The notes: generated by a model from the letters alone, not told the origin. A DNA stretch of 63,849 nt, filler included, from Aduncisulcus paluster (GCA_024181965.1; 8 parts of 8 records of this genome joined end to end with filler, not necessarily neighbours in it), one strand, 5' to 3'. Positions 1 to 60,040 are shown, counted from the whole stretch's first letter. Made by a program: numbers and translations.

Positions 1-2
1 CG

Positions 3-1112
3 AAGAAGTCGAAGAAATCTAAAAAATCGAAGAAAGGTGGGCTTGGTTCTGCTCTCGAAGTCCATTCCATTGATATCGCTCTCGATGAGATGACTGTTGC
101 TGGAAAAGATCGCAAACCCTCCTCTTCCTCTTCTTCCTCCTCTTCCTCCTCTTCCTCTTCCTCCAAACGAAAAGTTCAGAAATCGATTGAATATTTCATT
201 GATGACGATGCCCCCGATGACCATGCTTCCCCTCTTGGGCCTGGGACGGACAATCCAAGGTGTTCAGTGTTGTTGCCCACCAAGAAGTCTTCAAAGGGCT
301 GTATTGTGGCGACAGTTAAGTCTGGTTATATTGTTGGTGTGTCTGGGTGCAGCTTTGAGGTATATTTGGATGATCATGGAGAATCTGGATATGTTCCTCA
401 TACATGTGTTCTATTAATGGATACTGAGAAAGATACTGATGATTTTGGAATTGATGACGATGACCCCGATGACCATGCTTCCCCTCTTGGGCCTGGGACG
501 GACAATCCAAGGTGTTCAGTGTTGTTGCCCACCAAGAAGTCTTCAAAGGGCTGTATTGTGGCGACAGTTAAGTCTGGTTATATTGTTGGTGTGTCTGGGT
601 GCAGCTTTGAGGTATATTTGGATGATCATGGAGAATCTGGATATGTTCCTCATACATGTGTTCTATTAATGGATACTGAGAAAGATACTGATGATTTTGG
701 AATTGATGACGATGATTTATCCGTTGAAATCGAACTTCCCAAGATCGGTCGAATTGAACCGGCCGCTTATCCTGACTTGCCTGGGCCCTTGATTGGCTCT
801 GACCTTCCTATCACATCTCCCATGGCTCCTGACCTTGGCGATCTTCCTCCAATTATTCCTCCCCACGATGTCACTGGAGGTGGAGTAGGGGCTATTGTTA
901 GTCCGAGTGCACCTGATTTCGCTGATATTCCTGCCATTGGTGATCCTTCTGGACTTGCCCCTTCTTCGGGTGCCTTTCCAATTGTTGATGGACCGACTTC
1001 AGGAGTATTTGTGGTAGATGAAGGTGTTGACATGTCACTTTTCATGAGAAGTCGTGGATCTGCTGAAACTCCACTTGCTCCGACATTCGATGATCCGACG
1101 ACTCATGAATGA
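3..1112 (+). CDS. 5'-partial protein with two identical SH3-like domains and a Pro-rich C-terminus
   Basis: Frame is open from base 3. The repeated 84-aa unit ends in an SH3-like GESGYVPHTCV motif. The C-terminus has PMAP, PSAP and PLAP motifs. Confidence 0.65.
   Translation, partial: KKSKKSKKSKKGGLGSALEVHSIDIALDEMTVAGKDRKPSSSSSSSSSSSSSSSKRKVQKSIEYFIDDDAPDDHASPLGPGTDNPRCSVLLPTKKSSKGCIVATVKSGYIVGVSGCSFEVYLDDHGESGYVPHTCVLLMDTEKDTDDFGIDDDDPDDHASPLGPGTDNPRCSVLLPTKKSSKGCIVATVKSGYIVGVSGCSFEVYLDDHGESGYVPHTCVLLMDTEKDTDDFGIDDDDLSVEIELPKIGRIEPAAYPDLPGPLIGSDLPITSPMAPDLGDLPPIIPPHDVTGGGVGAIVSPSAPDFADIPAIGDPSGLAPSSGAFPIVDGPTSGVFVVDEGVDMSLFMRSRGSAETPLAPTFDDPTTHE
198..714 (+). repeat. 252-bp near-exact tandem duplication
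   Basis: Unit starts ATTGATGACGATG at 198 and 450, with a partial third start at 702. One substitution seen between copies. Confidence 0.95.
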
Positions 1113-1329
1113 TCTGTATGAGCTTATATATATTGTTTATTCATACCAATCCACACAAAGATAAAATATATCATAATATATTGGCGAGATATTGTTAAAT
1201 TATATATGATTTCTTATATGGCTAACTCTATCGAATAACAACTATTTTTTCCAAGAAATATAATTATAAGTTGAGAAATCTTTTGGTTTATATAGATATA
1301 CAGTATGTGCTTATATGGATGGTTGTTAT

Positions 1330-2030
1330 CATTTTGTTCAAATAAATCAAAATGGTAATTCTCTTCGAGTTCAGCTTCAATATTCTAAGGTTTCAAAGCA
1401 TCACCTCCGACCTGTGACCAATGTGCAATCATGTTGCTTTTGTATGAATTCATTCAAAAAGCAGTTCATCAGAAGTCATAGTATTTCAAAAATGTCGATG
1501 CTCTTGTGATCAATTTCCAGTAGTAAACTTTCTCTCGAGTCTGTCTTGGTATTCATCCTTCTTTTGATATTTTTCTGATATCTGAGATAGAAAGAGAGAG
1601 CTAGTTTGGTTTAGTGCTTCATTGTATAGAATGTATCATAGAGTATTGTGATGTTATGTATGTATGTAGGGTGGGTGGGTGGGCAAGACATACATTCTTA
1701 AAAATCTAACTCAATCGTTGATCCATTCAATTTCTACGACTTTTCGTTCATGTTTATCAACCAAGAAACCTCTGGATCATGCCAGTTCTAGTTTCATATA
1801 CTTCGTAGTGTTCTTTTTCTTTCGAGTCCATTCATTTCCTCCGTGTGCATCTGAATCTTCTCGACTTCACTTATACTTGAAATGAGAACAATCAATTCAC
1901 TCACACAATTTGACCTTGCTAGCTCTTCTTGACAACGGTGGGAGTGGCTCTCAATCGATTCTTTCAATCTCTGAAACCGAGTGGAAAGTCTTGAAATAGA
2001 AATGTATGGCAAAAAAAGATCTGTTTCGCA
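1330..2030 (-). pseudogene. Decayed coiled-coil-like gene with a candidate 112-nt spliceosomal intron (1693-1582)
   Basis: Minus strand reads GTATGT...CTCTCTCTTTCTATCTCAG. Flanks are coding-like (ORF 1794-2012) but have stops in all frames. Boundaries approximate. Confidence 0.45.
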
Positions 2031-2050
2031 TTAAAAATGAAAGAAAATCA

Positions 2051-2992
2051 TTATAGAATTCCAGTTGCCATACTAATACTGGGATTAGATTCTCTCGTAG
2101 TAATAGTACTTTGTACCGTTGAGGCCTTCGAGAAACAATACTGATCGTGCTTACTCTTCACAATATCATCAATGGATTCACTGAGTTTTGGACTGAGGTG
2201 TGGGGTTAGCCCCGATCTCCCGAAATCGGGGTCTTCCTGTGTAATATTGTGGACGCAGCCCAACTCAACCGTGTCACGAAATACTAAACCATCTTGTAGC
2301 AGAATCTCGTCCACCAAACTCAAATCCTCTTTAAGGGCCAGACCAGTTGGCCAGAGTTCCCTTGACGCTTCTTTGTGGCGAGTCACCTACAAGGTTGTAG
2401 ATGGCTCCCAGGATGACGTAGTTGTCAGATATCCATCAAAGAAGCGGGCCTCTTTCTCCAGAATCATGGCAGCAGTACCATCTTTGTCCTTAACACGAGT
2501 CTCGTCTATCATAGCAATTTCGAAAATGCTGCTATCTCTTCTTCTTGCGGATTCGGGCCAGTTGGCCAGAGTACCCTTTATGCAGAGATGTCGCACTCGA
2601 CCACTCACGGAAACGCCATCAACAAAAACAGAAAGTGGGCACCATAACCATGATTTTTCCCAGAGAGCCTCGTCCCAAACCGTCAAAGTCTTTTTGGGTG
2701 AATCCAAAATGGCATTATTTCCACTAATAATCGTCGAGTGGCAGTCCCGCACAAAGTCATCACCTTGAATCAGTCGACTTACTAGAAACAAGCATCGAGA
2801 TGCAGAATCGAATTCACCTATTGTAATCAAACCTTTCAGAAGCGAGATCATAACCGCAGAAATCAAGGAGCGCTGTATCTCTTTTCCTCTCTTCCCCGGT
2901 GTGGTTGGGTTCTTGAAGAGAGGTTGGAGCTTTTCGGCTGGGAGTTGCATCTTCTGGATTCTTCTCGATATCGGATATGATACAACCTCCAC
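2051..2992 (-). pseudogene. Unknown protein interrupted by one in-frame TAG
   Basis: ORFs 2387-2992 and 2051-2386 abut in the same frame, separated only by the TAG at 2389-2387. Confidence 0.6.
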
Positions 2993-3261
2993 AATCGTGC
3001 TTTCTCTCTCAATCGCCTTTTCTCTTCTTCTCTCAATCTCCTTCTGCTTCCTATCAATTTCTCTGATCCTCTAAAAATTTTCTTTGTTAGTGGAAATACA
3101 CGAATATCGTACTCTTCTACGGTTCTTCTCTCAGTTCAGATACATCGGGGGCGCGTGGGACTGTACCTTCTTTTCCCACGAAGACAAAGGTGAAGGCCAA
3201 AGCCTGACGCTTCACACATAGAACAAGGAGTATGCCCGTCTTCCTTCTCTTCGTTCTATCA

Positions 3262-4205
3262 TCATCTCTGTCTCTCATCATCACTCTCAAGGTCATCTTC
3301 AACTTCTTCACCACTTTTTTCATCCAGCCCCGATTCCCAGGAGTTCCATATGCAAGAGGTCTGGAACCTGGTTTGTGGTGGGACTAAACCACAGAGCACT
3401 GTCGTGGAGCGGAGTAGAGGGTAACTCGTGAGGCTCCCAAAAGGTATCTTCACTCCCAAAGAGAAGATCTCGTCCTTCGCCCCGACAAACTGAACATGGG
3501 GTGAGCCCGCCCGATTTTGACCCGGAGTTTTTTCATTGCGGGCTATCGGTAACCATGGAGTTGAGATACACAATGACAATGACCCCATCCACCTCAAGCC
3601 AAGGTATATGATGTCCTTCTTGAGTTCGGTAAAGACATTCATCGTCTCGTCTCTCGCTCTACGCCATTCGTCCATACGGTGGTCTTCTTGTATGGAATGA
3701 TGAGTTTCGTTTTCCAATAGTGGGCTTTGATTGTTAATGAAGAAGATCTGAGGATTAGATCTGGCTCCATATTGTGAAGCAGACTATCTAACACTGCTTG
3801 GAGTGATATGAGGGCTCCAACCTCCACTCCACCAGAATATACACTTGTGTCACTGGTTGTCACCTCTCGGAGGCTTGATAATAGGCTTCGAGTCAAGCCG
3901 ATAATAAGACCGAACACTCCCCAAGGATTTAATCCCCGTGAAATGTTTCAATATCAAACTCAATTGAATTTTTGTGCGACGGTAGCCAATGAAAAGATTT
4001 TATGTTCCAAGCTTACTGTGTTTGTATGGAATCGAAGGTCTTCTCCTGAAGAATGGATGTCTTTTGGTATTTTTACCATCGGCCAGCCACATTTTAAAAG
4101 ATTTAAATCGTTGTATGACTCCAATTCAACCCCATTAAGTGTTAAATTGCCATCTTCTTCAAAGGAAAGTATTCTTTGTGAGGATTGAACATCTGTGTGT
4201 TTCAA
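3262..4205 (-). pseudogene. Fragments of an unknown gene
   Basis: Three successive coding-like minus ORFs without ATG starts (3960-4205, 3639-3917, 3262-3717), broken by a stop and a frameshift, ending in an acidic tail. Confidence 0.45.
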
Positions 4206-4636
4206 TTTTCTTTCTTTTTCTTTGCCAATACTGTCAAAAGAACCAATTGTGAACAGCTCTTCGTTTCAATTCTCTCAATTTAATTTCCTCTAAAATTACA
4301 ATTATTATCGTCGATATAGGATGTCCATTCCAAGTAGTAGAGCAGCTCTCAGTCCTTCTTTCCTCTCCCCTCTCGAATTGCACACGATAAATTCAATAAG
4401 GAGATTGGTCCCAGTCGGCGCTACACTAGTAATTGGGTACAGGATTTGACCACTCCTGATAGTGGAGTATGTTCCTTCAATCAATACGACCAGGAGCAGA
4501 TCGTCATCCAGCATCCACTCAAACTCTACGCTTATGCATTTCATATACCTTGCCTCATTGAAGAGGATCAGGGAGTCAAATTTTCCTTTGCATCCTTGAT
4601 AATAGCTAATTCTCATCTTAATATTAAGCTGTTCTC

Positions 4637-5899
4637 TCAAGTATTTGGCGAAATCTTTCCGATTTGACTCAGTATGGCCTCGAATATCCTTTCTAACATT
4701 TCTTGGATGGGACCAAAGTGCGCGACCATGTCCGACATGAAATTGAGAAGGCCTTTGATCCATTTTCCCAGGAGCTTGAATTTTGCCAAATAGCCAATAT
4801 TAATAGCTGCTGAAATATCTCTGTGGGTCACAGACAGGCACCTTCTCTGGCGCTTTAATTTTGTATTTCCTTTGCGAACCACCGGGTCGTGTTCTGCCCA
4901 GCAACAGAATGATAACGGAAACCCACAGTGTCTCTTCCCGCTGGCCGGGAATTTCCCATCCCCTACACACAGCATTGGGGTACTGCCGGTCATTTTAGAA
5001 AATTTGGCGATTTTCTTCTCGAGTTTTTGTGCTACCTTAAGTTTTTTCGCGTGATTGCCATAAAACTTGATTTTTGAACGTGTACAGTACAGTGACTCCT
5101 TACGGCGTCAACGTTTGGTTGGACTGTATCTTCGTTTGACAGCTCATCGAACTGATCCCTTATGTCGATCACATGGCATATATACACTGGTTCCAATCGA
5201 ATCTCTCGTGTAGTGGTTCTTGCATTTATGCACGGCGTAAGCATCAAACATCACTAAGTCTTTGGGGAGGCACAGTGTCCTCCATCTCTCCCAGTATTTG
5301 CCTATGCATCCTGGACTCCAAGGGGTGAGATGTGGGCTCAGTCTCGCACTCCCGAAAGGAGTCGGGGTCTTCAAGTGTTACTGACTGAGGCGTTTCTCTC
5401 TCCTCGCAAACTGTACCCAAATACTTCTTACCTCCTGAATCTCTTGTAGATTGCTTCCTTGGCAACATTCCCCCCACGAGAGGGGGCTTTCTGCTTCTGG
5501 AGATCAGCAATGAGAGCAGCAAAGGCTATCCTCAGATTCCAATTCTTCAAGCTCTTTGTCAACGACATCCTCTTCTTCTCCATCATCATCTTCTTTCGGA
5601 TTCGTAATCCTACTGTGTCTCTTCGTGAGTTCCGTTGCTTCAACCATATCAGCATTTTCTTGGAGTCTCTTTAAGCATTTGTGGCGCATTTGACTTTCCT
5701 TTTGGGATCCGGTTGGTGAGTATCCCTTTTCAATGTGTCTCAACAGAACATTTCCAGCAATGAGATCAGTGAAGATCTCGGGCAGGTGCAACAGAAAGGC
5801 ATTAATATCACTGGCACTCGGTGAAACTGCAAAGGGAGACTGTATCTTTTTCTCGCCGCAGCGTTCTTCTATCGTTGAGAGCACTTCAAGGTGCATCAT
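4637..5899 (-). pseudogene. Fanzor (eukaryotic TnpB-like RuvC nuclease) pseudogene
   Basis: Motifs in the expected order across frames: DSGGKKYLGTVC (RuvC-I DPG-like, ~5441-5406), basic helix RSKIKFYGNHAKKLKVAQKLEKKI, PMLCVGDGKFP (~4978-4946), Cys remnants, HRDISAAINI (RuvC-III, 4825-4796), then DQRPSQF after a 1-nt shift. In-frame TGAs at 5146-5144 and 5110-5108. The RuvC-II Glu segment is missing. Confidence 0.75.
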
Positions 5900-7400
5900 A
5901 TCATGGGGAAGGTGATATTGGGGGAAGAAATAGAGGGAAAGAGATGAAAGGATCCAATAAATACTTCAGTAATTGAGTCTATTTCGTATACTATTGATAC
6001 CATCGGCAAAACACAAAACATGTCAACTGGTTCTATGTATGAAACTATTGGTTCGGTTTTAGTCGTTTGCATTTCTCCCCCCCTTAACGCACACAATGCA
6101 TCCCTTTCATGTGACGAGAGAGCTGTCAGATCAGTAATAATAAAGGATTTTCCAAGGTAGATGGTGTTGGATTTGGCCTTGTCGAAGGTAAAAATAGATA
6201 AACTGGAATTCTCAGAATTTAAAAATTTTGTTGACAAAACGTCATTGATCAAAAAAAAATCTTCAGGAATCCCATCTTCATTGGTTATTTGGGTCCTTAT
6301 CTATATATTGCCATCCGGCAAGATCTGCCCGTTCTACAACTTCTTTTACCTTCTTAACCAGAGAGGAGGTAATGAATTTCGTTCCTGAGTGATTGAGAAT
6401 ATCACCTAACTGTTGTATGACTATAAGACCTCCCAATAGTGATCTTCTTTGTGATATAAAAACGAGATAGCTGCATGGGTTATTGCTATAAGAGCATGTG
6501 TTTTCGTCTCATGGAAGCGATAAGATGAGGTTTCTGGGGGCGTAAAGAGATTTTCGAGCTCAGAGATGTAATGTGCTTCGTTCCTGAATGATCAAGTATT
6601 TCATTCAACTTCTTAAGGATGGATAACGCATTCCAATGCTGATCTCCCTTTATATAGGTATGATATTGCAGCATGGGTTACTGCTTGGAGAGGGTGTGTC
6701 TTCGTAGGATGAGGTCTCTGGCGGTGCAAATAGATTTTCAAGTTCATCAGTACCTATTCTTTTTCCATGAATGGCCTTGGTAGGGGGGTAATATTGGCAT
6801 TCCCCGTCGGAATGTTGCTCAAGTAACTCTTTTAACTTTTTTGTGGCTCTTTTCAATCATCTCTCTCTCTTCGTAAACTCTTGTCGAGTATACATCTTTC
6901 ATCAAGGGAAGCGATTTCAGTTATTGATTTGACCGATTTTCGGAAACTGAGGGGATAGTTCGCAAACGTAGTTTTTATCGCAAGGGTTTTCACCTTTCCG
7001 TGTATACTATTGACACCATCGGCAAAACACAAAACAAAACAAATCTTGGCGTTCTTTTTAAACAAACCGGCATCGACCCAGTCTGAAGGAGGACCATCCA
7101 CAGCTTCGCATCTCTCGCCTACTTTGATAATTTCAGTTCTTATTTTTCGTAAGTAAGCTGGGGTGATCGAATCGAACAAGTTCGTTCTTAATTTCGACAT
7201 TATATCCACCAGCATAGTTTGCAGTGCTTCTGAATCCCCCCTCCCAAATCCCTCTCTCAACTGCTACATTTTTAGTCCTTATCATAAATTCCAATATCGT
7301 CCTTATTCTTAATTTCACGCATCTACAGCCTTCCATAATCTCATTGGCGTCCTCTCCTCTTCTAAACAAATCAAACTCCTCCTCCTTCCCAACCCCTTTT
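5896..7400 (-). pseudogene. Degenerate ORF fragments including two paralogous segments
   Basis: Minus ORFs 7133-7369, 6853-7260, 6650-6856, 6486-6674 and 5896-6252 in shifting frames, with a shared 35-bp block. Confidence 0.45.
5986..7036. repeat. 35-bp dispersed direct repeat (5986-6020 and 7002-7036)
   Basis: GTATACTATTGAYACCATCGGCAAAACACAAAACA, 34/35 identical. Confidence 0.9.
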
Positions 7401-7811
7401 TCTTGAATAGTACAGTATACAACTTCGATTTGAAAAGATATTGAAGGACATCTTTTAGCTCATTGATAGCCTTTCCCTCTCAATCTCTTTGACAACTTCT
7501 TTTAAATTGTTATTGTGGTTTCTTGCAGCATCATCTATAATAGTGGTTGGTGTGTTTCCACAACACCGTTTGATAGGAGAAGCTTCACTCAATAAAGAGA
7601 GAGGAAGGGGGTGCGGGTCCGGGGTTTCAATAGTAATTACCTCCTCATCCTTTAATAATGTAGTATCGCATACATGTTACGATATTTAGGATAATATTAT
7701 GTCAGAGATTCACTAAAACGAAACAATCACCACACCGTCCACATGTGTGAAGCGGGGTCAATACATGTAGAGAGATCAATATCTCGCACAATTTGCATGA
7801 CTAGATCACTG

Positions 7812-8096
7812 TCATCTGATGTTGGCATCCCGAGGCAGGGATGTTTCTTCTTCATCGTCCTCTTCAAGCAATGCATCAGATAGGTCATCATTCTGACTTC
7901 TCCACTCTCCTGTTGAATCTTCAGATCTCAATTGTGAAGAACTTGTTGAAGATTCATCCTTTTGATTGATTGCATAGTCATCTTCTTCGTCAAAAAGTGG
8001 GTCATCCCCAAACTTGGCGTCTCCATAAGAATCTAATGGGGGGTTGAAAAAGATGGATACTATCCAATCTTTCCTGGTTTGCCTCGGATCTTTCAA
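7812..8096 (-). pseudogene. Acidic ORF remnant
   Basis: 94-aa D/E/S-rich ORF without an ATG start, co-oriented with the island. Confidence 0.35.
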
Positions 8097-8313
8097 TCAT
8101 TTGTCTATCTTCTTGCGTAATATCAAGGTATGAACTGTACCTTCTTCGATTAGTCACCATTTGACACCAAAATACAATTTCAATTTGGAAATGCGCAATT
8201 AATGCATGAAATACTAATATAAGAGGTTAATAAACATTTCAGGTAAAATATTCGATTTCATGCATTAAAATATCATTTTACTTGGGAGTTTCTTCAAAAC
8301 ATATGGAGAAACA

Positions 8314-8412
8314 CCGTCAATCATCACCAACTTGGTGATTGCAAAACCACCTCTCCACAGGTACAGAGTTCCACAATACCTGTGGGAGAGGTTCTCGTCA
8401 AAAATGACGGAA
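8314..8412. other. Multi-hairpin element (possible structured RNA or DNA cruciform)
   Basis: ATCACCAA-C-TTGGTGAT palindrome, CCTCTCCACAGGTA/TACCTGTGGGAGAGG stem, and CCGTCA(8314)/TGACGG(8405) or CGTCA-AAAA-TGACG closing stems. Confidence 0.5.
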
Positions 8413-9005
8413 TTTTATACTTGACCATTCTCGAAAAGGGATCTGTTGCTGCGTGTTATACTTCTTGACCGAATTGGTTGAGGATAGCTGTCATTAATAC
8501 AACATGACAGTAGCAGATAGTGAATGGAATGGTAAATCATCGGAATATTATCCGTTTCGGGATGTAATACTAGGCCAGAGGTTTCTGTTCTTGTGATTGA
8601 TTCGAGCAATTTAATTTAGAGAGGACTTGCCAAGTGTGGCCGGAGTAAATTGTGTCCAGTTTCAAGACACCAAGGACACGGATAATATCCCGAATCTATA
8701 CATCTAAAAATATGTGTTTAACGGTCAATCGACACAATATGTGACATTTATGTCCCTTTTTAACATCCTCCGTTACATTTTGTATATCCTTATATTGATC
8801 ACGGGATCTAAATGAATTCTTTTCATGGTGTCAGCAAATATTCTTCGTAGATGCGATTCGCCTCGGATTTTCTCCGAGCAATGTTTCTCTTTTAAGTTCC
8901 ACTCTCGATACTATATCAATTTCAGGAACAAAATCTTTTACACAATCTTGGATAAAATTCTTTTCAGCACTACTAAGTGACTGATCTTGTAATAGAGCTC
9001 TGGCT

Positions 9006-9452
9006 CTAGTAAATATTACGTGTAGTAGATGGCATCATAATATATCTTTGAGATACCATGGATAATAAAATAACACTTATGGATGGATAACTTGTTCTTA
9101 TTGAAACAAGATCTCCCTGCCTGTGTTTCCCACAGGATAAGGAACTTACTCCACTTGACTCCTGTTGAGCCAAGAAGTCTGCAACAGCCTCTTCAGTTCC
9201 AATATATCCTCTGCATAGAGAAGAACCACAATGACACTCTTGCAGATGTATCTCGTCGATAACACTGTAGTTTGTAGTGATCTTATCCCCTGCATCAATT
9301 ACCTCATCCGCAACAATGTAAACGATAACCTTTGGATTCTCATAACAGATAACAGTCTCCAGATAGCTGCAATTAGGCTCACAACTATGATTGGCAAAGG
9401 CTGCGACACATGCTGATCTGCATGGAGGGATCACGCCGGGGGGGACAACCAA
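9006..9452 (-). pseudogene. SET-domain C-terminal half plus post-SET (lysine methyltransferase fragment)
   Basis: AAFANHSCEPNC, IDAGDKITTNY and CHCGSSLCRGYIG motifs. N-terminal SET half and ATG absent. Candidate intron 9495-9418 (GTAAGT...TGCAG). Confidence 0.8.
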
Positions 9453-9993
9453 GGGGCCAAAAACGGAACATGAACAAATAAATCATAAGACTTACGCTCC
9501 CCCGGGTTGATCAGACCCAGGGGAACTGCTTTTATAATATATTATGTGCCCAAAACCAAAGCCCGCAATCGTGAGATTCACACCGAAAGGTTAATGTGGG
9601 AAATATTAGAATGTAAATTAAGATTAAAGGTATAATAAATAGTTAATAATTTATTTTTGTGCATGAGTTATTGATAATATGCTCATGTTAAGAGATCAGA
9701 AATAAGATCTGGAATGAAGAAGTCAGACGGATATTATAAAACATATTATTAATAAATATTTCTAATATACTTAAATTTATTATTTATTCTTCTTCTGCTA
9801 ATCCTTTTCCCTGACATTGGTGAAATTTGAAAAAGACTGATTTCTCCTTGGTTGTTATAATTAAATTTTTTATTATAGCGTTTTTATTATTTATATTGGA
9901 TTTTATAAAGGTTTTTATTGTTGTTTTTTTAATAAATGCATTTTAATATCTGACCTTGATGACATTTGAAAAATTCTTATATATCGGGTAAAA

Positions 9994-10093
9994 NNNNNNN
10001 NNNNNNNNNNNNNNNNNNNNNNNNNNNNNNNNNNNNNTTAATTAATTAANNNNNNNNNNNNNNNNNNNNNNNNNNNNNNNNNNNNNNNNNNNN
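9994..10093. other. Artificial contig linker (same linker cores at 18029, 27632, 32976, 41879, 49671, 59985)
   Basis: N-run + TTAATTAATTAA (multi-frame stop spacer) + N-run, seen seven times. Confidence 0.98.
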
Positions 10094-12776
10094 TTTGCTT
10101 CCTCTCTTCTTCTTCTCTCTTCTTTCTTTCTTCTTCAAGACGTCTCCGTTCGATGGCTAGTTGTTTCTTACGCTCTTCTTCTTGTCTTCGAAGCTCTTCT
10201 TCTCTTTTCTTCCTCTCCTCTTCTTCTTTCCTTCTTTGCTCCTCTTCTCTCTTCTTCTCTTCTTCTCTACGTTTTCTATCGGCGATTTCCTGGAGTCGTC
10301 TTTCTTCCTCTTTCCTCTTCCTTTCTTCCTCAAGGCGTTTCTTCCTCTCTTCCTCTTCTTTTTCTCGACGGATACGATCTTCTTCTTCTTTCCGCTTCCT
10401 CTCTTCCTCTTGCTTTTTCAGTTCCTCTTGTCGCTGTCTCTCTTCTTCTTCCTTCTTCAGACGTTCTTCCTCTTTTCTCTTTCTCTCGGCTTCGATCCGT
10501 TTTCTAATGGCTTCAAGTTCCCTTTGTTTCTTTTCTTCTTCCCTTTGTCGCCTCTCCTCTTCCTCTTTCCTGTGTTTGGCAACAGCAATACGACGCTCCT
10601 CTTCTAATCTTTCTTGCAACGCCATGGCTTCCTTTCTTTTCCTTTCTTCCTCATCGGCCAAACGTTTGATCTCGGCTTCTTTTCGCTTTCTCTCCTCTTC
10701 TTCTTTTCGCTTCTTCTCCTCTTCTTCTTTTCTCTTCCTTTCCTCTTCCTCCTTTTTCAAACGCGCCTCTTCCTCTTCTTTTCTCTTCCTTTCCTCTTCT
10801 TCTTTTTTCAAACGTTCTTCTTCCTCTTCTTTTCTCTTCCTTTCCTCTTCTTCTTTTTTCAAACGTTCTTCTTCTTCTTCTTTCTTTCTTCTCTCTTCTT
10901 CTTCTTCTTCTTTCTTTCTTCTCTCTTCCTCCTCTTCTTTTCTCTTTCTCTCCTCCTCTTCCTCCTCTTCTTTTCTCTTCCTTTCCGAGTCACTCTTTTC
11001 TTCGCTCTCACTATTTCCGCTATTCTTTTTAAGTAATATAAAAGGAAGGCGAAACAACCTTCGAAGTTGAGCACATTTGGCATATCTCTCTACGGGGTTC
11101 TCAGACACCAGAAGGGATAATTGCTTCTTCAGATACGATGACCAATTTGAAGAGAATAATTGGAAGGTGGAATAATCCTTCGGAGCTTTGACAACCATCG
11201 AGGTCTTGCTCCTCTGCAACTCTGGTACATCTTTCTCAATCTTACCTTCGGCGGAGTTACGGACATGATATTTTCCATCCAACATTTCAAGAACATGGCC
11301 TTCTTCCACCAAACTAAGAATAATGTACACACAACAACAAGCAACAATATCGTCAGTGTAGGATGTCGCACGAAGTTTCTCAGAGGAGGGTATCTGAGCA
11401 AGAGTAAGCGTACGAGACTTTGTAAGCTTTAAAAAACGGCCTAATAACTGGACAAATACACTTCCAAACTTCTCGGAAAGGAGGGATTTCCTGAATTTCC
11501 AAGCAAGCTTGTAACGATCAGCGTTTGGAGGGGGTTGGGTTCGAGAAAAATGAACGTAACTTCCCAAACCAGCACCGACATGAGTGTTTACCAGTGCGGC
11601 ACTGATTTTTGCTGCAAGACGAGCTATATTTAGACTTGCATCGTCAGATCCAGAAAGAGTCTTCACAAGAATAGTCAACATTAGGGATTGTATTCCAAGT
11701 CTTTCCATTTCCTTCAGACAAGTGAGGTCGTTGACGAGGATCATGAGCACTCCAAGAGCATAACGAGCCACTTCTCGGGAGCACTCAGGGTCGTCCAATA
11801 GGGGTTTAATACGGACAATGACACCCTGTTTGGTGGCTTCTTGCGTGACTTTCTTGAAGAAACAGAGGTGAATGAGGACAGATAGAGCATATGAGGTGAA
11901 AATGTCATCAAAATCACCCAAACGGGAAGAAATGATATCTAATCCTTTCAAATCGAGAGATACGAACTCGGCTACTTGTTGGTCATCACTAAATTTATAT
12001 AAAACACGCACAGCAACCATCACAACACGCTGGTCCTCGTGGGATTTTACGAGATTGAGGCATTCCTTCCAGATAGATTCCCTCGCCATCTCTTTCTTAT
12101 GCTGGTCATGGTCAGCGAGGAGAAGAATGCAACTGAGAGCCAAAGTTAGGGTGGCAGGATCTGTGGTCTGTCTAATTCCAAGAGTTAACTTCTTGACAAG
12201 ACGAAGGGATACAGCATACTCTGCGTTGGCTGGAACAGCAAGCATAGAGTGAAGGCCTTTCATACTATCACGAACAGACTTGCCTTCAAAGTTTTTGCTT
12301 GAAATAACATCAGAAAACACATCCATTCCTCCGCTTTCCCGAAGAAGAGATAAGAAACATTTAGATCGAGTAAGATGTGATAATAAGGATATTGAAGAAA
12401 AAAATAAATGTTTCTTCTTTGTTTCTTTCGCTGCTTTCATCAGAGCTTTGAATGATTTGGCTTTTTCTTCAGATGGTTTGGATCTCTTGATATTTTCAAA
12501 AATAAGAGGAAATATTTTTTCTCTCATATCATACACCTCCTCAACGCATGCTTGACTTGAAAGAAGTAACTGAACAAATCTCATATTCAGCGCAGCATAA
12601 GTCACATTATCAGAACTAAAATTATCAACTAATTTGTTAACAAATCCATACTTTACCGCCTCATCGCGGTATTCTTGTGATTCTTTGGCTATTGAAAAAT
12701 GTCTTTGTAAAATTGGAGAGGCTTCATCAGGTGGGCTTAACAAAGCTGCTTTTAATTCTGCAATATCTTCAATCAT
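10094..12776 (-). CDS. Armadillo/HEAT-repeat protein with long E/K/R single-alpha-helix tail (3'-partial)
   Basis: ATG at 12776. Helical ARM-like repeats in the N-terminal ~450 aa, ~300 aa of EEEERKRK-type repeats, then the gap. Confidence 0.75.
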
Positions 12777-12958
12777 TGACTAATTGATGAATAAATCTAT
12801 TAATTTAGTATATTAATATTAAAAAAAATCTAAAAAATTTATACCTAGTTTTAATTTGGAAGCAAAAAATTGTTTGCTTAATTTAAAGAGCAGATTAGGT
12901 TGATTTCAAATAAAAAAATTTATTATCAAAATTTAAAGGGATTTTGTAACCTTGAAAA

Positions 12959-17984: not shown

Positions 17985-19419
17985 NNNNNNNNNNNNNNNN
18001 NNNNNNNNNNNNNNNNNNNNNNNNNNNNTTAATTAATTAANNNNNNNNNNNNNNNNNNNNNNNNNNNNNNNNNNNNNNNNNNNNCCACACAGTTGATGAG
18101 TTTCCATCAATATAGTACTAAAATTAAACGAAATTTTTGGTAGAGGTTCCCCCACTTTTCTCAGCCACCGCCGGTGGAAAGTTTGTATTTTTTTTGTTTG
18201 TTTTTTTGGAAAAAAATATAATAAAGAAATGTACAGTGCAACCACCGTACAGGGGGGACCCCCACGGATGGGGGTAAAAGGGGGGGATTTTACTCATAGA
18301 TGGGAGATTGGTGAAATCAATAATAAAAAGAATAGACCAGTTCTAGTAGTTCTCTTCTTATGGTCAAGGAGAAGAGAAAAGCTTGAATTCGGCAAAAGAG
18401 GGAACCAACGAACGGAAGCAAAAGGAAATATCACGAATCATCATCCAAAATATAAGATATAAGATGTGACATAGATTGGTTCGACTGGTTCAATTGATAT
18501 GTTATTCGAGATTCAAATGAGTTAAGCGAGGGGCAGTTGGGTCAATTTGTCAGTTATTTTCAGAGACAATGGGTGTAAACCAGGATCAACGAAAAGAACC
18601 AGAAAGTTGAGTGTTTTAAATTCATAGCAGTATTATAGGGAGTAGTATGGCAAATATCCAACGTTTAAGTTCAGTTTTATGTCAATAAAAAGAACAAGAA
18701 TGTGTCAAAAAGTTCGAGATCCAAACAGATATCATTGACCCACAATAACAAGCAGTAGAGGGAATAACGACATGAACTTCGAATTGCAATTAGTTTAAAC
18801 TAAGTTTGTATCGTGATATTCCAGGAATATTGGAAAAAATATTATTAAGAAGTTGCCACAATGAAGAAGAAATGAAAGAACAGAATAAAGAGTTGAATCC
18901 AAACAATAAAATCACGACATTTGCTCCACGAGATGTTTTTGGCATGAAATTCTATCTTTTATCATGTTTTATACTCTTATTCTCATTGATAAAATATTCA
19001 CTCCAAGAAAGAGCATAAAACATCGGAATTCGTTGTTTGGGATGTAATATTTCAGGAAGCAACGATCAGCAACAATGCATTTGGTGGGAATCACTTTCAA
19101 TAGGATTGTATGTCTGTCAAAACAAAAAAAAAAGTTGACAGGATCCGATCTTCGTGTATCTGGATCATTGGTGAAATTAAAATTTTATGGTCATTAATAA
19201 AGAATAAAATTGGTTTGAAGATATTTATTTCAAAAATCTCATTATTAGAGCACGGAAAGAATAGGCACGAAAAGAGGGAATATTCTTGAAAGGTGAGTGA
19301 CTTAGTAATCAATTTACGATAAAAATCATTATGCCAATAAGGTAATGCTCATTTTGCTGGGAACTATTCCCAAATGTGCTCAAAAAATGTGAAAATGGTA
19401 TTAACAATTTTGCTTACAA

Positions 19420-27587: not shown

Positions 27588-27687
27588 NNNNNNNNNNNNN
27601 NNNNNNNNNNNNNNNNNNNNNNNNNNNNNNNTTAATTAATTAANNNNNNNNNNNNNNNNNNNNNNNNNNNNNNNNNNNNNNNNNNNN

Positions 27688-32930: not shown

Positions 32931-33373
32931 ANNNNNNNNNNNNNNNNNNNNNNNNNNNNNNNNNNNNNNNNNNNNTTAATTAATTAANNNNNNNNNNNNN
33001 NNNNNNNNNNNNNNNNNNNNNNNNNNNNNNNAATAACATGATGAAGAAAAACAGAAATGCAAATACACAAAACTATTGAAAGGATTGAATGCACCGAGTT
33101 CTCGAAAGTAACAGCAAAACCACGTCGTTCTATTGCCACAAAACAGTAAAATATAATGATATTAGACATGACAAAACCCATCGGAAGTCCGAAAGGCGTA
33201 ATTCTTCAGTGAAAAGGTGGAATATGAAGAGGACATCCATAGAGAAAAATTAAGTCATGTACAGTACGTTTAAAATGATTATTTTTAAAAAATATGAGAC
33301 GAGAAACAGGATAAGGATCTCAAAAACATTTAAAACTGTAACAAATTGAATCGAGAAGATTATTAAAAAGTGA

Positions 33374-41834: not shown

Positions 41835-42101
41835 NNNNNNNNNNNNNNNNNNNNNNNNNNNNNNNNNNNNNNNNNNNNTTAATTAATTAANNNNNNNNNN
41901 NNNNNNNNNNNNNNNNNNNNNNNNNNNNNNNNNNCCCTTAAATTGGAGGTTTTTATTCTATCTTAAAGATAGAACTTTTCCTCCTTCCATTGGTAGTTAA
42001 CAGGTAGGCTTTTTTTGGGGCAACTGACATGCCATGTCTACTATGATAGTATGATCTAAGGTAATTGGCTTTTTTTTTTAATTTATTATTACTTGGGGCG
42101 A

Positions 42102-59939: not shown

Positions 59940-60040
59940 CNNNNNNNNNNNNNNNNNNNNNNNNNNNNNNNNNNNNNNNNNNNNTTAATTAATTAANNNN
60001 NNNNNNNNNNNNNNNNNNNNNNNNNNNNNNNNNNNNNNNN

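Follow-up and report, generated by a model that had tools for sequence, protein, structure and literature searches.

The stretch at positions 1330 to 9600 of the window is probably a nonfunctional mosaic of decayed, mostly repeated DNA that fills one short contig of Aduncisulcus paluster. The window (the whole stretch of DNA analyzed, 63,849 nucleotides) consists of joined contigs, with spacers of 44N+TTAATTAATTAA+44N between the pieces, and the island takes up nearly all of the 9993-bp contig at window positions 1 to 9993. Since that contig ends at 9993, the DNA past this position is not the island's neighborhood. Because the window is made of joined contigs, its remainder represents other contigs and no neighbors of the island, and neighborhood readings across the spacers are invalid.

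The island as an observation is real and confirmed. The initial annotation had reported no intact long ORF in 1330 to 9600, and this was borne out: stop-free frames extend to 227 aa at most (2390–3070, minus strand), and the second and last frame of at least 180 aa (207 aa; 2145–2765, plus) runs antisense to this one. All 11 remaining contig pieces of the window hold a frame of 340 to 1318 aa. The described difference from the rest of the window thus stands for frame length, but the pieces compared are other contigs, not neighbors. On the minus strand, 12 stop-free stretches reach at least 100 aa, whereas 300 shuffles averaged 0.64 such stretches and never gave more than 4 (0 of 300 reached 12); the plus strand has 4 versus 1.24 expected, a number reached by 2.7% of the 300 shuffles. 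The placement of all coding-like fragments on the minus strand was likewise upheld for the fragments with homology support (6/6). Six independent insertions in one orientation would be a coincidence of about 1 in 32, and therefore some of these fragments are likely to share an origin in a single colinear or tandem structure.

A. paluster is a free-living fornicate metamonad and a free-living relative of Giardia. Its assembly is a draft built from Illumina short reads only (N50 of 4.6 kb; 25,863 contigs) and is fragmented at repeats. We compared positions 1 to 9993 with independent contigs from a DNA run (X1) and from a second run guessed to be RNA (X2). The 10 kb is matched by 656 X1 contig pieces (420 at a level of at least 99%, 188 at 95–99%, 39 at 90–95%, and 9 below 90%). 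Summed X1 contig depth per bin, which is no copy number, ranges from about 1,155 to 68,910, that is, from blocks at about 1x to blocks at about 60x single-copy depth; single-copy contigs lie at about 1,150 to 1,280, and the long identical X1 contigs at 1,155 to 1,276. Repeat boundaries or loose ends occur at about 4309–4382, 5247–5329, 7421–7479, 7665, 9438, and 9540. The many variant contigs on the stretch, together with relatives that are A. paluster paralogues only, support a mostly repeat-derived origin of the fragments.

The island contig might instead be a chimeric or collapsed consensus sequence of several repeat copies, with the apparent breaks arising from copy mixing. The short-read assembly speaks for such an artifact, as does the recovery of just 0.82 of the words sampled from the stretch in X1. 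At several repeated stretches (for example, 1370–1471, 3404–3435, and 4159–4274), the sole X1 contig differs in letters from the window, and there the contig may blend several copies. However, independent contigs reproduced the single-copy blocks 5300–6104, 6540–7477, and 7808–9246 with 0 differences and 0 gaps, and these blocks likewise lack long frames. The breakage by frameshifts and deletions that had been proposed was verified against other copies at two sites. X1 contigs totaling 1,280.7 of 7,532.1 depth carry 7 additional nt behind 2435, and the short form of the window is backed by separate contigs (6,251 of 7,532); 10 nt are inserted behind 4686 in contigs totaling 2,323.6 of 3,427.3, and the short form there has 1,104 of 3,427. 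Because both forms occur in independent contigs, these two breaks are not consensus errors, and we consider an assembly artifact very unlikely as the explanation of the island.

A Fanzor had been reported in the stretch, and a TnpB/Fanzor-type tail is indeed present, but as a C-terminal remnant only and with scores below cutoff. The remnant (4799–5107, minus) carries the RuvC-III motif HRDISAAINIGY, in which the RD is found (RDISAAIN; 4799–4822, minus). It matched NCBIfam guided_TnpB at E 5.4e-4 (19.4 bits, cutoff 100) over model positions 349 to 386 of 389, and Pfam Cas12f1-like_TNB at E 0.12 (13 bits, cutoff 26.3). In the Atlas, 21 of its 30 matches fall in PF07282-bearing clusters (score 0.94), and its neighbors are for the most part giant-virus clusters. 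The Fanzor1/TnpB signature, as set out by Bao and Jurka 2013 (PMC3627910), is D-X(125,275)-[TS][TS]-X-X-[C4 zinc finger]-X(5,50)-RD. A regular-expression search of all six frames of 1 to 9993 for the C4 zinc finger, 5 to 50 residues before RD and after [TS][TS]-x-x, returned no [TS][TS]..C..C; the sole CxxC...CxxC in these frames (7723–7797) is unrelated to the tail. For the RuvC-I aspartate, no G[IVL]D.G was present in any frame of 1 to 9993 (GxDxG absent), and 14 pieces up- and downstream of the tail gave no TnpB profile match at E up to 10. A 164-aa frame (4308–4799, minus), which in other copies prolongs the TnpB-like frame, is split off here by the 10-nt deletion at 4686; with the 10 nt restored, 5107–4308 becomes a single open frame of about 266 aa. 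In the other copies, the TnpB-like frame extends about 150 aa beyond the RD motif, a length unusual for TnpB.

An orphan "DGVSVSG" domain occurs twice. Copy A, together with the following "ILGAIYNLVGDSPQR" segment (2337–2851, minus), is split by the 7-nt deletion at 2435. Restoring the 7 nt places domain and segment in one frame, colinear with paralogue P0003, whose residues 55–136 and 144–168 match the copy A region in two different frames. Copy A and P0002 share 76% identity across 135 aa (E 1e-67). Copy B is diverged (FADGVNSIHGKVKTLAIKTTFANYP...; 6883–7134, minus) and lies in the single-copy block 6540–7477, spanned by an identical X1 contig of depth 1,270; it is 45% identical to copy A (E 2e-11) and in tblastn matched P0004 (E 6e-13, 34%) and P0002 (E 8e-8, 47%). 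Two smaller fragments are shared with paralogue P0005: the "LYFFPQYHLPHDMMHLEVL" (YHLPHD) fragment (5879–5935, minus; 74% identity over 19 aa, E 8e-5), and a fragment at 1803–1988 (minus; 94% identity over 62 aa to P0005 residues 225–286, E 9e-31). The latter lies in a block of about 10x, the summed depth of bins 1337–2004 being about 11,500 to 12,500. The order in the island is YHLPHD, DGV copy A, and the 1803–1988 fragment, and that in P0005 is YHLPHD, the 1803–1988 counterpart, and DGV.

Residues 169–214 of P0003 matched DDE_3 (E 1.1e-5, 25.8 bits, cutoff 28.6) and IS630 (E 7.8e-6, 25.5 bits, cutoff 100). For its residues 40–170, 26 of 30 Atlas matches fall in DDE_3 clusters, with low numbers of shared features (124 of 256). 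The window's own DGV-related pieces (2390–3070, 2334–2435, 2054–2386, and 6856–7263) matched 0 families in a search for a DDE profile at E up to 10, and AlphaFold modeled the DGV piece poorly (pLDDT 46.8). The orphan DGVSVSG protein may be an IS630/Tc1-type DDE transposase that has diverged very far. A CACTA/CMC transposase, considered for a motif resemblance, was dropped after the window pieces and P0001–P0005 gave no match to Transposase_21 or related Pfam families at E up to 10.

The public gene model ADUPG1_009068 (2054–5468, minus; 655 aa) is judged a chimeric prediction across pseudogene pieces. Its eight exons (5468–5250, 5151–5101, 5032–4844, 3887–3786, 3681–3487, 3383–3120, 3067–2393, and 2308–2054) are separated by seven introns, and its protein maps back to the island contig in eight pieces. 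If the annotation were correct, this gene and perhaps others would be real and intron-rich, with exons that only resemble broken frames; the model was predicted by BRAKER2 with RNA-seq hints, and X2 contains 0.78 of the words sampled from the stretch. Against this, the seven introns compare with a genome mean of 0.77 per protein, and the only conserved TnpB motif, the RD motif, is cut out by a 956-nt "intron". An X2 contig (3708–4309) is unspliced over both edges of exon 4, none of the six listed contig joints coincides with any predicted intron, and four of the six occur in the DNA run too. The model also crosses the site at which other copies have 7 extra nucleotides. A phmmer search of the protein against 1,835,955,588 representatives returned four matches; each is an A. 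paluster protein of another contig, and each is restricted to the DGV domain, a domain thus seen in A. paluster alone. We give almost no credence to a real intron-rich gene; ADUPG1_009068 looks like a prediction artifact stitched from pseudogene pieces.

The report of a SET domain held for the C-terminal half with post-SET, but the N-terminal half is missing. The Set2/SETD2/NSD-like remnant (9009–9482, minus; NHSCEPNC ... CHCGSSLCRGY) matched Pfam SET at E 7.6e-7 over profile positions 61 to 104 of 105 only; homology starts near 9434–9414, and positions 1–60 are absent. Its nearest solved relatives are SETD2 (E 9e-9), NSD2, ASH1L, and KMT2, always in the C-terminal SET/post-SET part. The frames upstream carry stops and sit in an AT-rich, noncoding high-copy repeat (9439–9993), which deprives the SET remnant of its 5′ half and reaches the contig end. 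X1 depth of this repeat is 40,981 at 9353–9686 and 68,910 at 9687–9993; the loose ends before 9438 and 9540 are points where other copies continue into different DNA, and 9439–9993 gave no Pfam match. A short repeated block with raised X2 depth lies at 7421–7665 (loose ends 7421, 7479, and 7665): bin 7349–7682 has depths of 8,362 in X1 and 500 in X2, versus 11 to 20 in adjacent X2 bins. This block probably belongs to a multicopy sequence expressed elsewhere, the RNA nature of X2 being a guess.

The initial annotation had interpreted the whole 8 kb as one large, decaying transposon or viral insert that carries cargo, with Fanzor and SET as passengers; the DGV protein could then be the transposase. 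This interpretation is partly supported. The six recognizable fragments are co-oriented, the paralogous contig also joins DGV, YHLPHD, the 1803–1988 counterpart, and an IS630-like piece, and the mostly giant-virus clusters among the Atlas neighbors of the TnpB tail would fit as well. Mariner, Helitron, Sola, IS4, and MuDR elements are known to carry Fanzor1 genes as passengers (PMC3627910). Block depths from about 1x to 60x with repeat junctions inside the island speak against a single element, however, as does the different fragment order in the paralogous contig. No terminal repeats of the island were found, nor terminal inverted repeats with a TA duplication; inverted pairs are just 16 to 27 nt at 74 to 94% complementarity, and about nine exact 11-nt inverted matches are expected by chance in 8.8 kb. 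The SET piece, of cellular Set2/SETD2/NSD type, lies in a block of depth about 1,155 to 2,352 (1–2x) cut by the high-copy repeat, with no sign of cargo status. A viral origin found no backing in a profile scan of minus-strand pieces of at least 30 aa (73/73) and plus-strand pieces of at least 45 aa (53/53): none of the 126 matched the capsid, polB, packaging ATPase, integrase, or Rep/Hel hallmarks of giant viruses, Polintons, or Helitrons, and the sole significant match was SET. An Rfam scan of the window returned nothing. The earlier statement that transposase, capsid, and termini could not be identified agrees with these searches, in which no transposase rose above threshold. We regard the single-element interpretation as unlikely.

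The mosaic of decayed repeats, by comparison, holds what is left of two or more lineage-specific genes carried on repeats, namely, a TnpB/Fanzor-like nuclease recognizable by its RuvC-III tail alone and the orphan DGVSVSG protein in two copies of putatively different ages. It also includes small fragments that recur in a second contig rich in repeats, spacer DNA at single copy, and a Set2/SETD2-like SET gene of cellular type reduced to its 3′ half, with the high-copy repeat in place of the 5′ half. The fragments may have arrived by transposition or segmental duplication and decayed later through point mutations and small deletions. Transcription would come chiefly from more intact copies elsewhere, and BRAKER presumably merged the open pieces into a spurious eight-exon gene.

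As a more speculative and rather unlikely extension, A. paluster could harbor a still-transcribed, lineage-specific composite transposon family that pairs a TnpB/Fanzor-type nuclease, whose C terminus carries an unusual extra stretch of about 150 aa, with the DGVSVSG protein as a DDE (IS630/Tc1-like) transposase of extreme divergence. The window would then hold a dead copy, with more intact copies elsewhere in which both frames are open. The additional 7 nt and 10 nt of other contigs hint at such copies. If true, the composite family would represent a Fanzor lineage in Metamonada; a search of a limited set of papers found no account of Fanzor in metamonads and no meaningful one for Trichomonas. 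Intact copies, if any, would take eukaryotic RNA-guided nucleases beyond the range known so far and offer a handle on the transposon content of a poorly assembled genome. The modest lead is that Giardia's free-living relative holds both a relic of TnpB/Fanzor type and an orphan family of repeat-borne proteins. The island itself is real but ordinary genomic debris, and its main value is the correction of public annotation: ADUPG1_009068, and probably its relatives too, appear to be pseudogene pieces stitched together and are unfit as fornicate genes in comparative work.

Compared with the Fanzor1/TnpB genes of eukaryotic DNA transposons, including the Tc1/mariner-Fanzor1 two-gene elements (PMC3627910), the tail shares the C-terminal RuvC-III "RD.xAA.NI" and weak but specific profile matches. 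Like those elements, it is embedded in repeated DNA and shares its strand with a possible DDE-type gene, and a paralogous A. paluster contig has an IS630/DDE_3-like piece. Unlike them, it keeps only the last signature element (RD), and the island has no guide-RNA region, termini, or intact transposase that we found. The likeness to IS630/Tc1/mariner (DDE_3) lies in P0003, which runs from the DGV domain into the segment matching DDE_3 and IS630, whereas those matches are under curated cutoffs and outside the part common to the window, and no terminal inverted repeats were found. With Set2/SETD2/NSD/ASH1L histone lysine methyltransferases, the SET remnant shares NHSCEPNC, the C-terminal part of SET, and the CxCx4C of post-SET, but it lacks the N-terminal SET half and any AWS domain, and its frame begins at a repeat boundary. 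Unlike the nested or fragmented transposon clusters ("TE graveyards") of repeat-rich protists, the island has recognizable fragments that are all co-oriented, from undescribed families confined to A. paluster; it resembles them in its blocks of differing copy number and age, its frameshifts and truncations, its low-level read-through coverage, and a contig end that falls in a high-copy repeat.

The island of broken coding sequence at 1330-9600 lies in the window's first contig (1-9993), from a highly fragmented genome assembly. Aduncisulcus paluster, a free-living fornicate metamonad, has an Illumina-only MaSuRCA assembly that spans 29.4 Mb in 25,863 contigs, with an N50 of 4.6 kb (PMC9933649). 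The window is divided into separate contigs by seven spacers (44 N, TTAATTAATTAA and 44 N; 9994-10093, 17985-18084, 27588-27687, 32932-33031, 41835-41934, 49627-49726, and 59941-60040) and four 20-N scaffold gaps (36861, 38723, 45508, and 54915). Since these are contig breaks, neighborhood readings across them are unsafe, and sequence past 9993 is not part of the island's surroundings; a warning about such concatenated contigs is one useful outcome of this work.

The longest stop-free frame within the island is 227 aa (2390-3070, minus strand), and the sole other frame of at least 180 aa is its 207-aa antisense. Each of the 11 other contig pieces of the window contains a frame of 340 to 1318 aa, several of them being typical genes of eukaryotes that encode kinases, topoisomerase III, one WD40 protein, and one LRR-EGF protein. 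The initial annotation was thus right that the island has no intact long ORF; the difference it drew from the remainder of the window holds for frame length, but is one between separate contigs. The island sequence is not random: 12 minus-strand frames of at least 100 aa were observed, versus a mean of 0.64 and a maximum of 4 in 300 shuffles, and four plus-strand frames versus a mean of 1.24. All six fragments with homology support are on the minus strand, as had been claimed for the coding-like fragments. On the next contig, an 895-aa minus-strand frame (10095-12779) includes an armadillo region resembling ARMC5 (E = 5e-11, below the cut-off) and a purine/pyrimidine-skewed low-complexity stretch of ~900 nt that gives E/K-rich repeats.

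Independently assembled contigs of a DNA run, X1, and of a run guessed to be RNA, X2, were aligned to 1-9993 at 80% likeness; the two runs come from one sample, and the fraction of words of this stretch that they contain is 0.82 for X1 and 0.78 for X2. X1 contributed 656 pieces (420 at ≥99% identity, 188 at 95-99%, 39 at 90-95%, and 9 at <90%), many more variants than expected of 10 kb of single-copy DNA. Three blocks (5300-6104, 6540-7477, and 7808-9246) show the assembly to be reproducible, with no differences to X1 contigs at a depth of 1,155 to 1,276. Relative to that depth, the summed depth, a rough guide rather than a copy number, is 2- to 10-fold at 1337-2004, 4343-4676, 6013-6346, and 7349-7682, and 35- to 60-fold at 9353-9993. 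Contigs with 1,280.7 of a total depth of 7,532.1 carry 7 extra letters behind 2435; restoring these places the orphan DGV domain and the ILGAIYNLVGDSPQR segment in one frame, colinear with the paralog P0003, an A. paluster protein encoded on another contig. Likewise, contigs with 2,323.6 of 3,427.3 carry 10 extra letters behind 4686, which join the TnpB-like frame and a 164-aa frame (4308-4799) into one frame of ~266 aa. Because the shorter forms in the window have contig support of their own, both are true frameshifting deletions relative to other copies. These two breaks are accordingly not consensus errors, and the description of fragments broken by frameshifts and deletions is borne out at 2435 and 4686.

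Smaller repeats occur in the same contig. A block of ~250 nt (7421-7665), with ~7-fold DNA depth and X2 depth ~30-fold above its neighbors, matched no family and is probably part of an expressed multicopy sequence elsewhere in the genome. A 35-nt patch at 7002-7036, inside the second DGV copy, recurs 1 kb downstream at 5986-6020 with 97% identity in another frame. The segments 6366-6562 and 6565-6746 form a tandem duplication of ~200 nt (66% identity). A stretch of 184 nt at 6569-6754 is missing from one contig of the DNA run and from one of X2, indicating that copies differ by this unit.

The public gene model ADUPG1_009068 (655 aa, minus strand) maps as eight pieces between 5468 and 2054. 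Its seven introns are ~9 times the genome mean, the BRAKER2 models having 11,743 introns in 15,316 proteins, or 0.77 per protein (PMC9933649), and a predicted intron of 956 nt takes out the RD motif of the TnpB-like piece. None of the six contig joints listed matches a predicted intron. Four of the six are also found in the DNA run, which makes them indel differences between copies; the remaining two are exclusive to the DNA run. One contig of X2 crosses both edges of exon 4 (3708-4309) unspliced. Correction of this model is itself a useful outcome. X2 contigs carry neither strand nor level information, and their RNA identity is a guess, although a >1000-fold variation in the X2/X1 ratio along the contig suggests that X2 is not simply DNA. 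If X2 is RNA, the island has low coverage (4 to 94 versus 520 to 1,190 for the plus-strand gene that flanks it at 1-1112), and at the two frameshift sites this coverage is mostly of the longer forms (60.4/60.4 at 2435 and 43.3/66.7 at 4686). In the flanking sequence, the contig starts with an open-ended frame of 369 aa (3-1109, plus strand) with a perfect 252-nt tandem duplication at 198-701 (2.1 copies, 99%) and no significant Pfam family. With by far the highest X2 depth (520 to 1,190) and a DNA-run depth 3 to 14 times single-copy, it is probably an expressed, repeat-containing, multicopy gene.

The Fanzor reported in the island is present as a tail only. The minus-strand piece at 4799-5107 matches the NCBIfam model guided_TnpB (E = 5.4e-4) over positions 349 to 386 of 389, scoring 19.4 bits where the cut-off is 100, and Pfam Cas12f1-like_TNB at E = 0.12. 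Its nearest ESM-Atlas clusters, mostly from giant viruses (score 0.94), belong in 21 of 30 cases to the set carrying Cas12f1-like_TNB. Bao & Jurka (PMC3627910) give the Fanzor/TnpB signature as D-X(125,275)-[TS][TS]-X-X-[C4 zinc finger]-X(5,50)-RD; the RD element is the only part of it present here, and a motif check of every frame detected neither a zinc finger nor a TS motif nor GxDxG. Sequence searches with the piece gave no PDB match at E up to 10 and no relatives in IMG/VR, and its flanking pieces had no TnpB matches. Among proteins, the minus-strand frame at 4640-5107 had the locus's own model, ADUPG1_009068, as its only longer match, and none was of similar length. The piece is the relic of the last part of a TnpB/Fanzor-like gene, not a Fanzor gene. 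Among the papers searched, we found no joint mention of Fanzor and metamonads.

The SET piece (9009-9482, minus strand; Pfam SET E = 7.6e-7) is likewise partial, with its match confined to profile positions 61 to 104 of 105. The best matches among solved structures are SETD2 (E = 9e-9), NSD2, ASH1L, and KMT2, always aligned over the C-terminal SET and post-SET segment. The homology starts at the boundary of AT-rich, non-coding, high-copy DNA (9439-9993, from X1 depth), and the frames upstream are closed. Summed X1 depth in this repeat is 41,000 to 69,000, versus ~1,150 to 1,280 in long contigs that agree fully with the window, and X1 contigs place junctions of other repeat copies with different DNA at 9438 and 9540; the block holding the SET piece has a depth of 1- to 2-fold. 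The piece represents the 3′ half of a Set2-class gene of cellular type and is not a minimal SET of the viral type; the nine matches to viral contigs are generic and uninformative (26-41% identity). The reported SET is thus present as a C-terminal half, with profile positions 1 to 60 absent, and we found no sign supporting its status as cargo.

The remaining homology is to proteins of the same species. A phmmer search of ADUPG1_009068 against 1.84 billion representatives found four proteins, all from A. paluster contigs elsewhere and all matching the DGV or "DGVSVSG" domain, in which D-G-V-S is invariant. Homology to these paralogs defines two minus-strand copies in the island. Copy A (2337-2851) is 76% identical to the paralog P0002; copy B (6883-7134) is older, as its 33 to 47% identity to the paralogs and its position in single-copy DNA indicate. 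Two further minus-strand fragments match segments of the paralog P0005: the YHLPHD fragment at 5879-5935 (74% identity) and one at 1803-1988 (94%). A six-sequence DGV profile found nothing at E up to 10 among proteins of 990 to 2825 aa, and a single-protein metagenome scan gave no relatives among 179 pattern matches. A CACTA/CMC transposase, proposed from motif resemblance, was dropped for lack of profile support. In P0003, the DGV domain leads into a segment with matches to DDE_3 (E = 1.1e-5) and to IS630 (E = 7.8e-6), each below its cut-off, and residues 40 to 170 of this paralog have DDE_3 clusters as neighbors in 26 of 30 Atlas matches, with few shared features. From these likenesses, IS630/Tc1/mariner appears a better, if tentative, lead for the DGV protein; against it, the window's own DGV pieces gave no matches to this family. 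The segment following the domain resembles the domain itself, in the manner of an internal repeat. AlphaFold gave a poor model (pLDDT 46.8), whose strand-strand-strand-helix around the invariant aspartate is too weak to use. P0003 and P0005 are adjacent annotated genes on a 9866-bp contig, the one with ADUPG1_012408 and ADUPG1_012409, and combine DGV, YHLPHD, and LSARF-type fragments, the last being the counterpart of 1803-1988. An IS630/DDE_3-like piece and a "GIDPG" motif are present in them as well, and they look like further stitched gene models over repeat debris.

A Pfam scan of all 73 minus-strand pieces of at least 30 aa and all 53 plus-strand pieces of at least 45 aa gave SET as the only significant match. 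In keeping with the initial annotation, which identified no transposase or capsid, neither was found in these 126 pieces; integrase, Rep/Hel, tyrosine recombinase, and above-threshold DDE are also lacking among them. The absence of capsid, polymerase, and packaging ATPase counts against a viral insert. Searches for Rfam families and tRNAs gave no matches. The proposal that the whole island is one large cargo-bearing element in decay draws on the shared strand of the six fragments, a coincidence with a chance of ~1 in 32 for independent insertions and ~1 in 8 if there are four independent units, which argues for at least a partial common origin. Against a single element are the strongly different depths of its blocks, junctions or loose ends inside it (~4309-4382, 5247-5329, 7421-7479, 7665, 9438, and 9540), a fragment order unlike that of P0005, the lack of terminal repeats, in keeping with the earlier report that termini could not be identified, and the absence of island copies from the window's other contigs. 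We therefore favor a mosaic in which some neighbors, for example the pair of DGV copies, or DGV copy A together with the TnpB tail, may share one parent structure.

The families in the island are undescribed and species-restricted, and offer a lead for which intact copies should be sought in a better assembly. Fanzor-type relics amid decayed transposon debris are, as such, already known.
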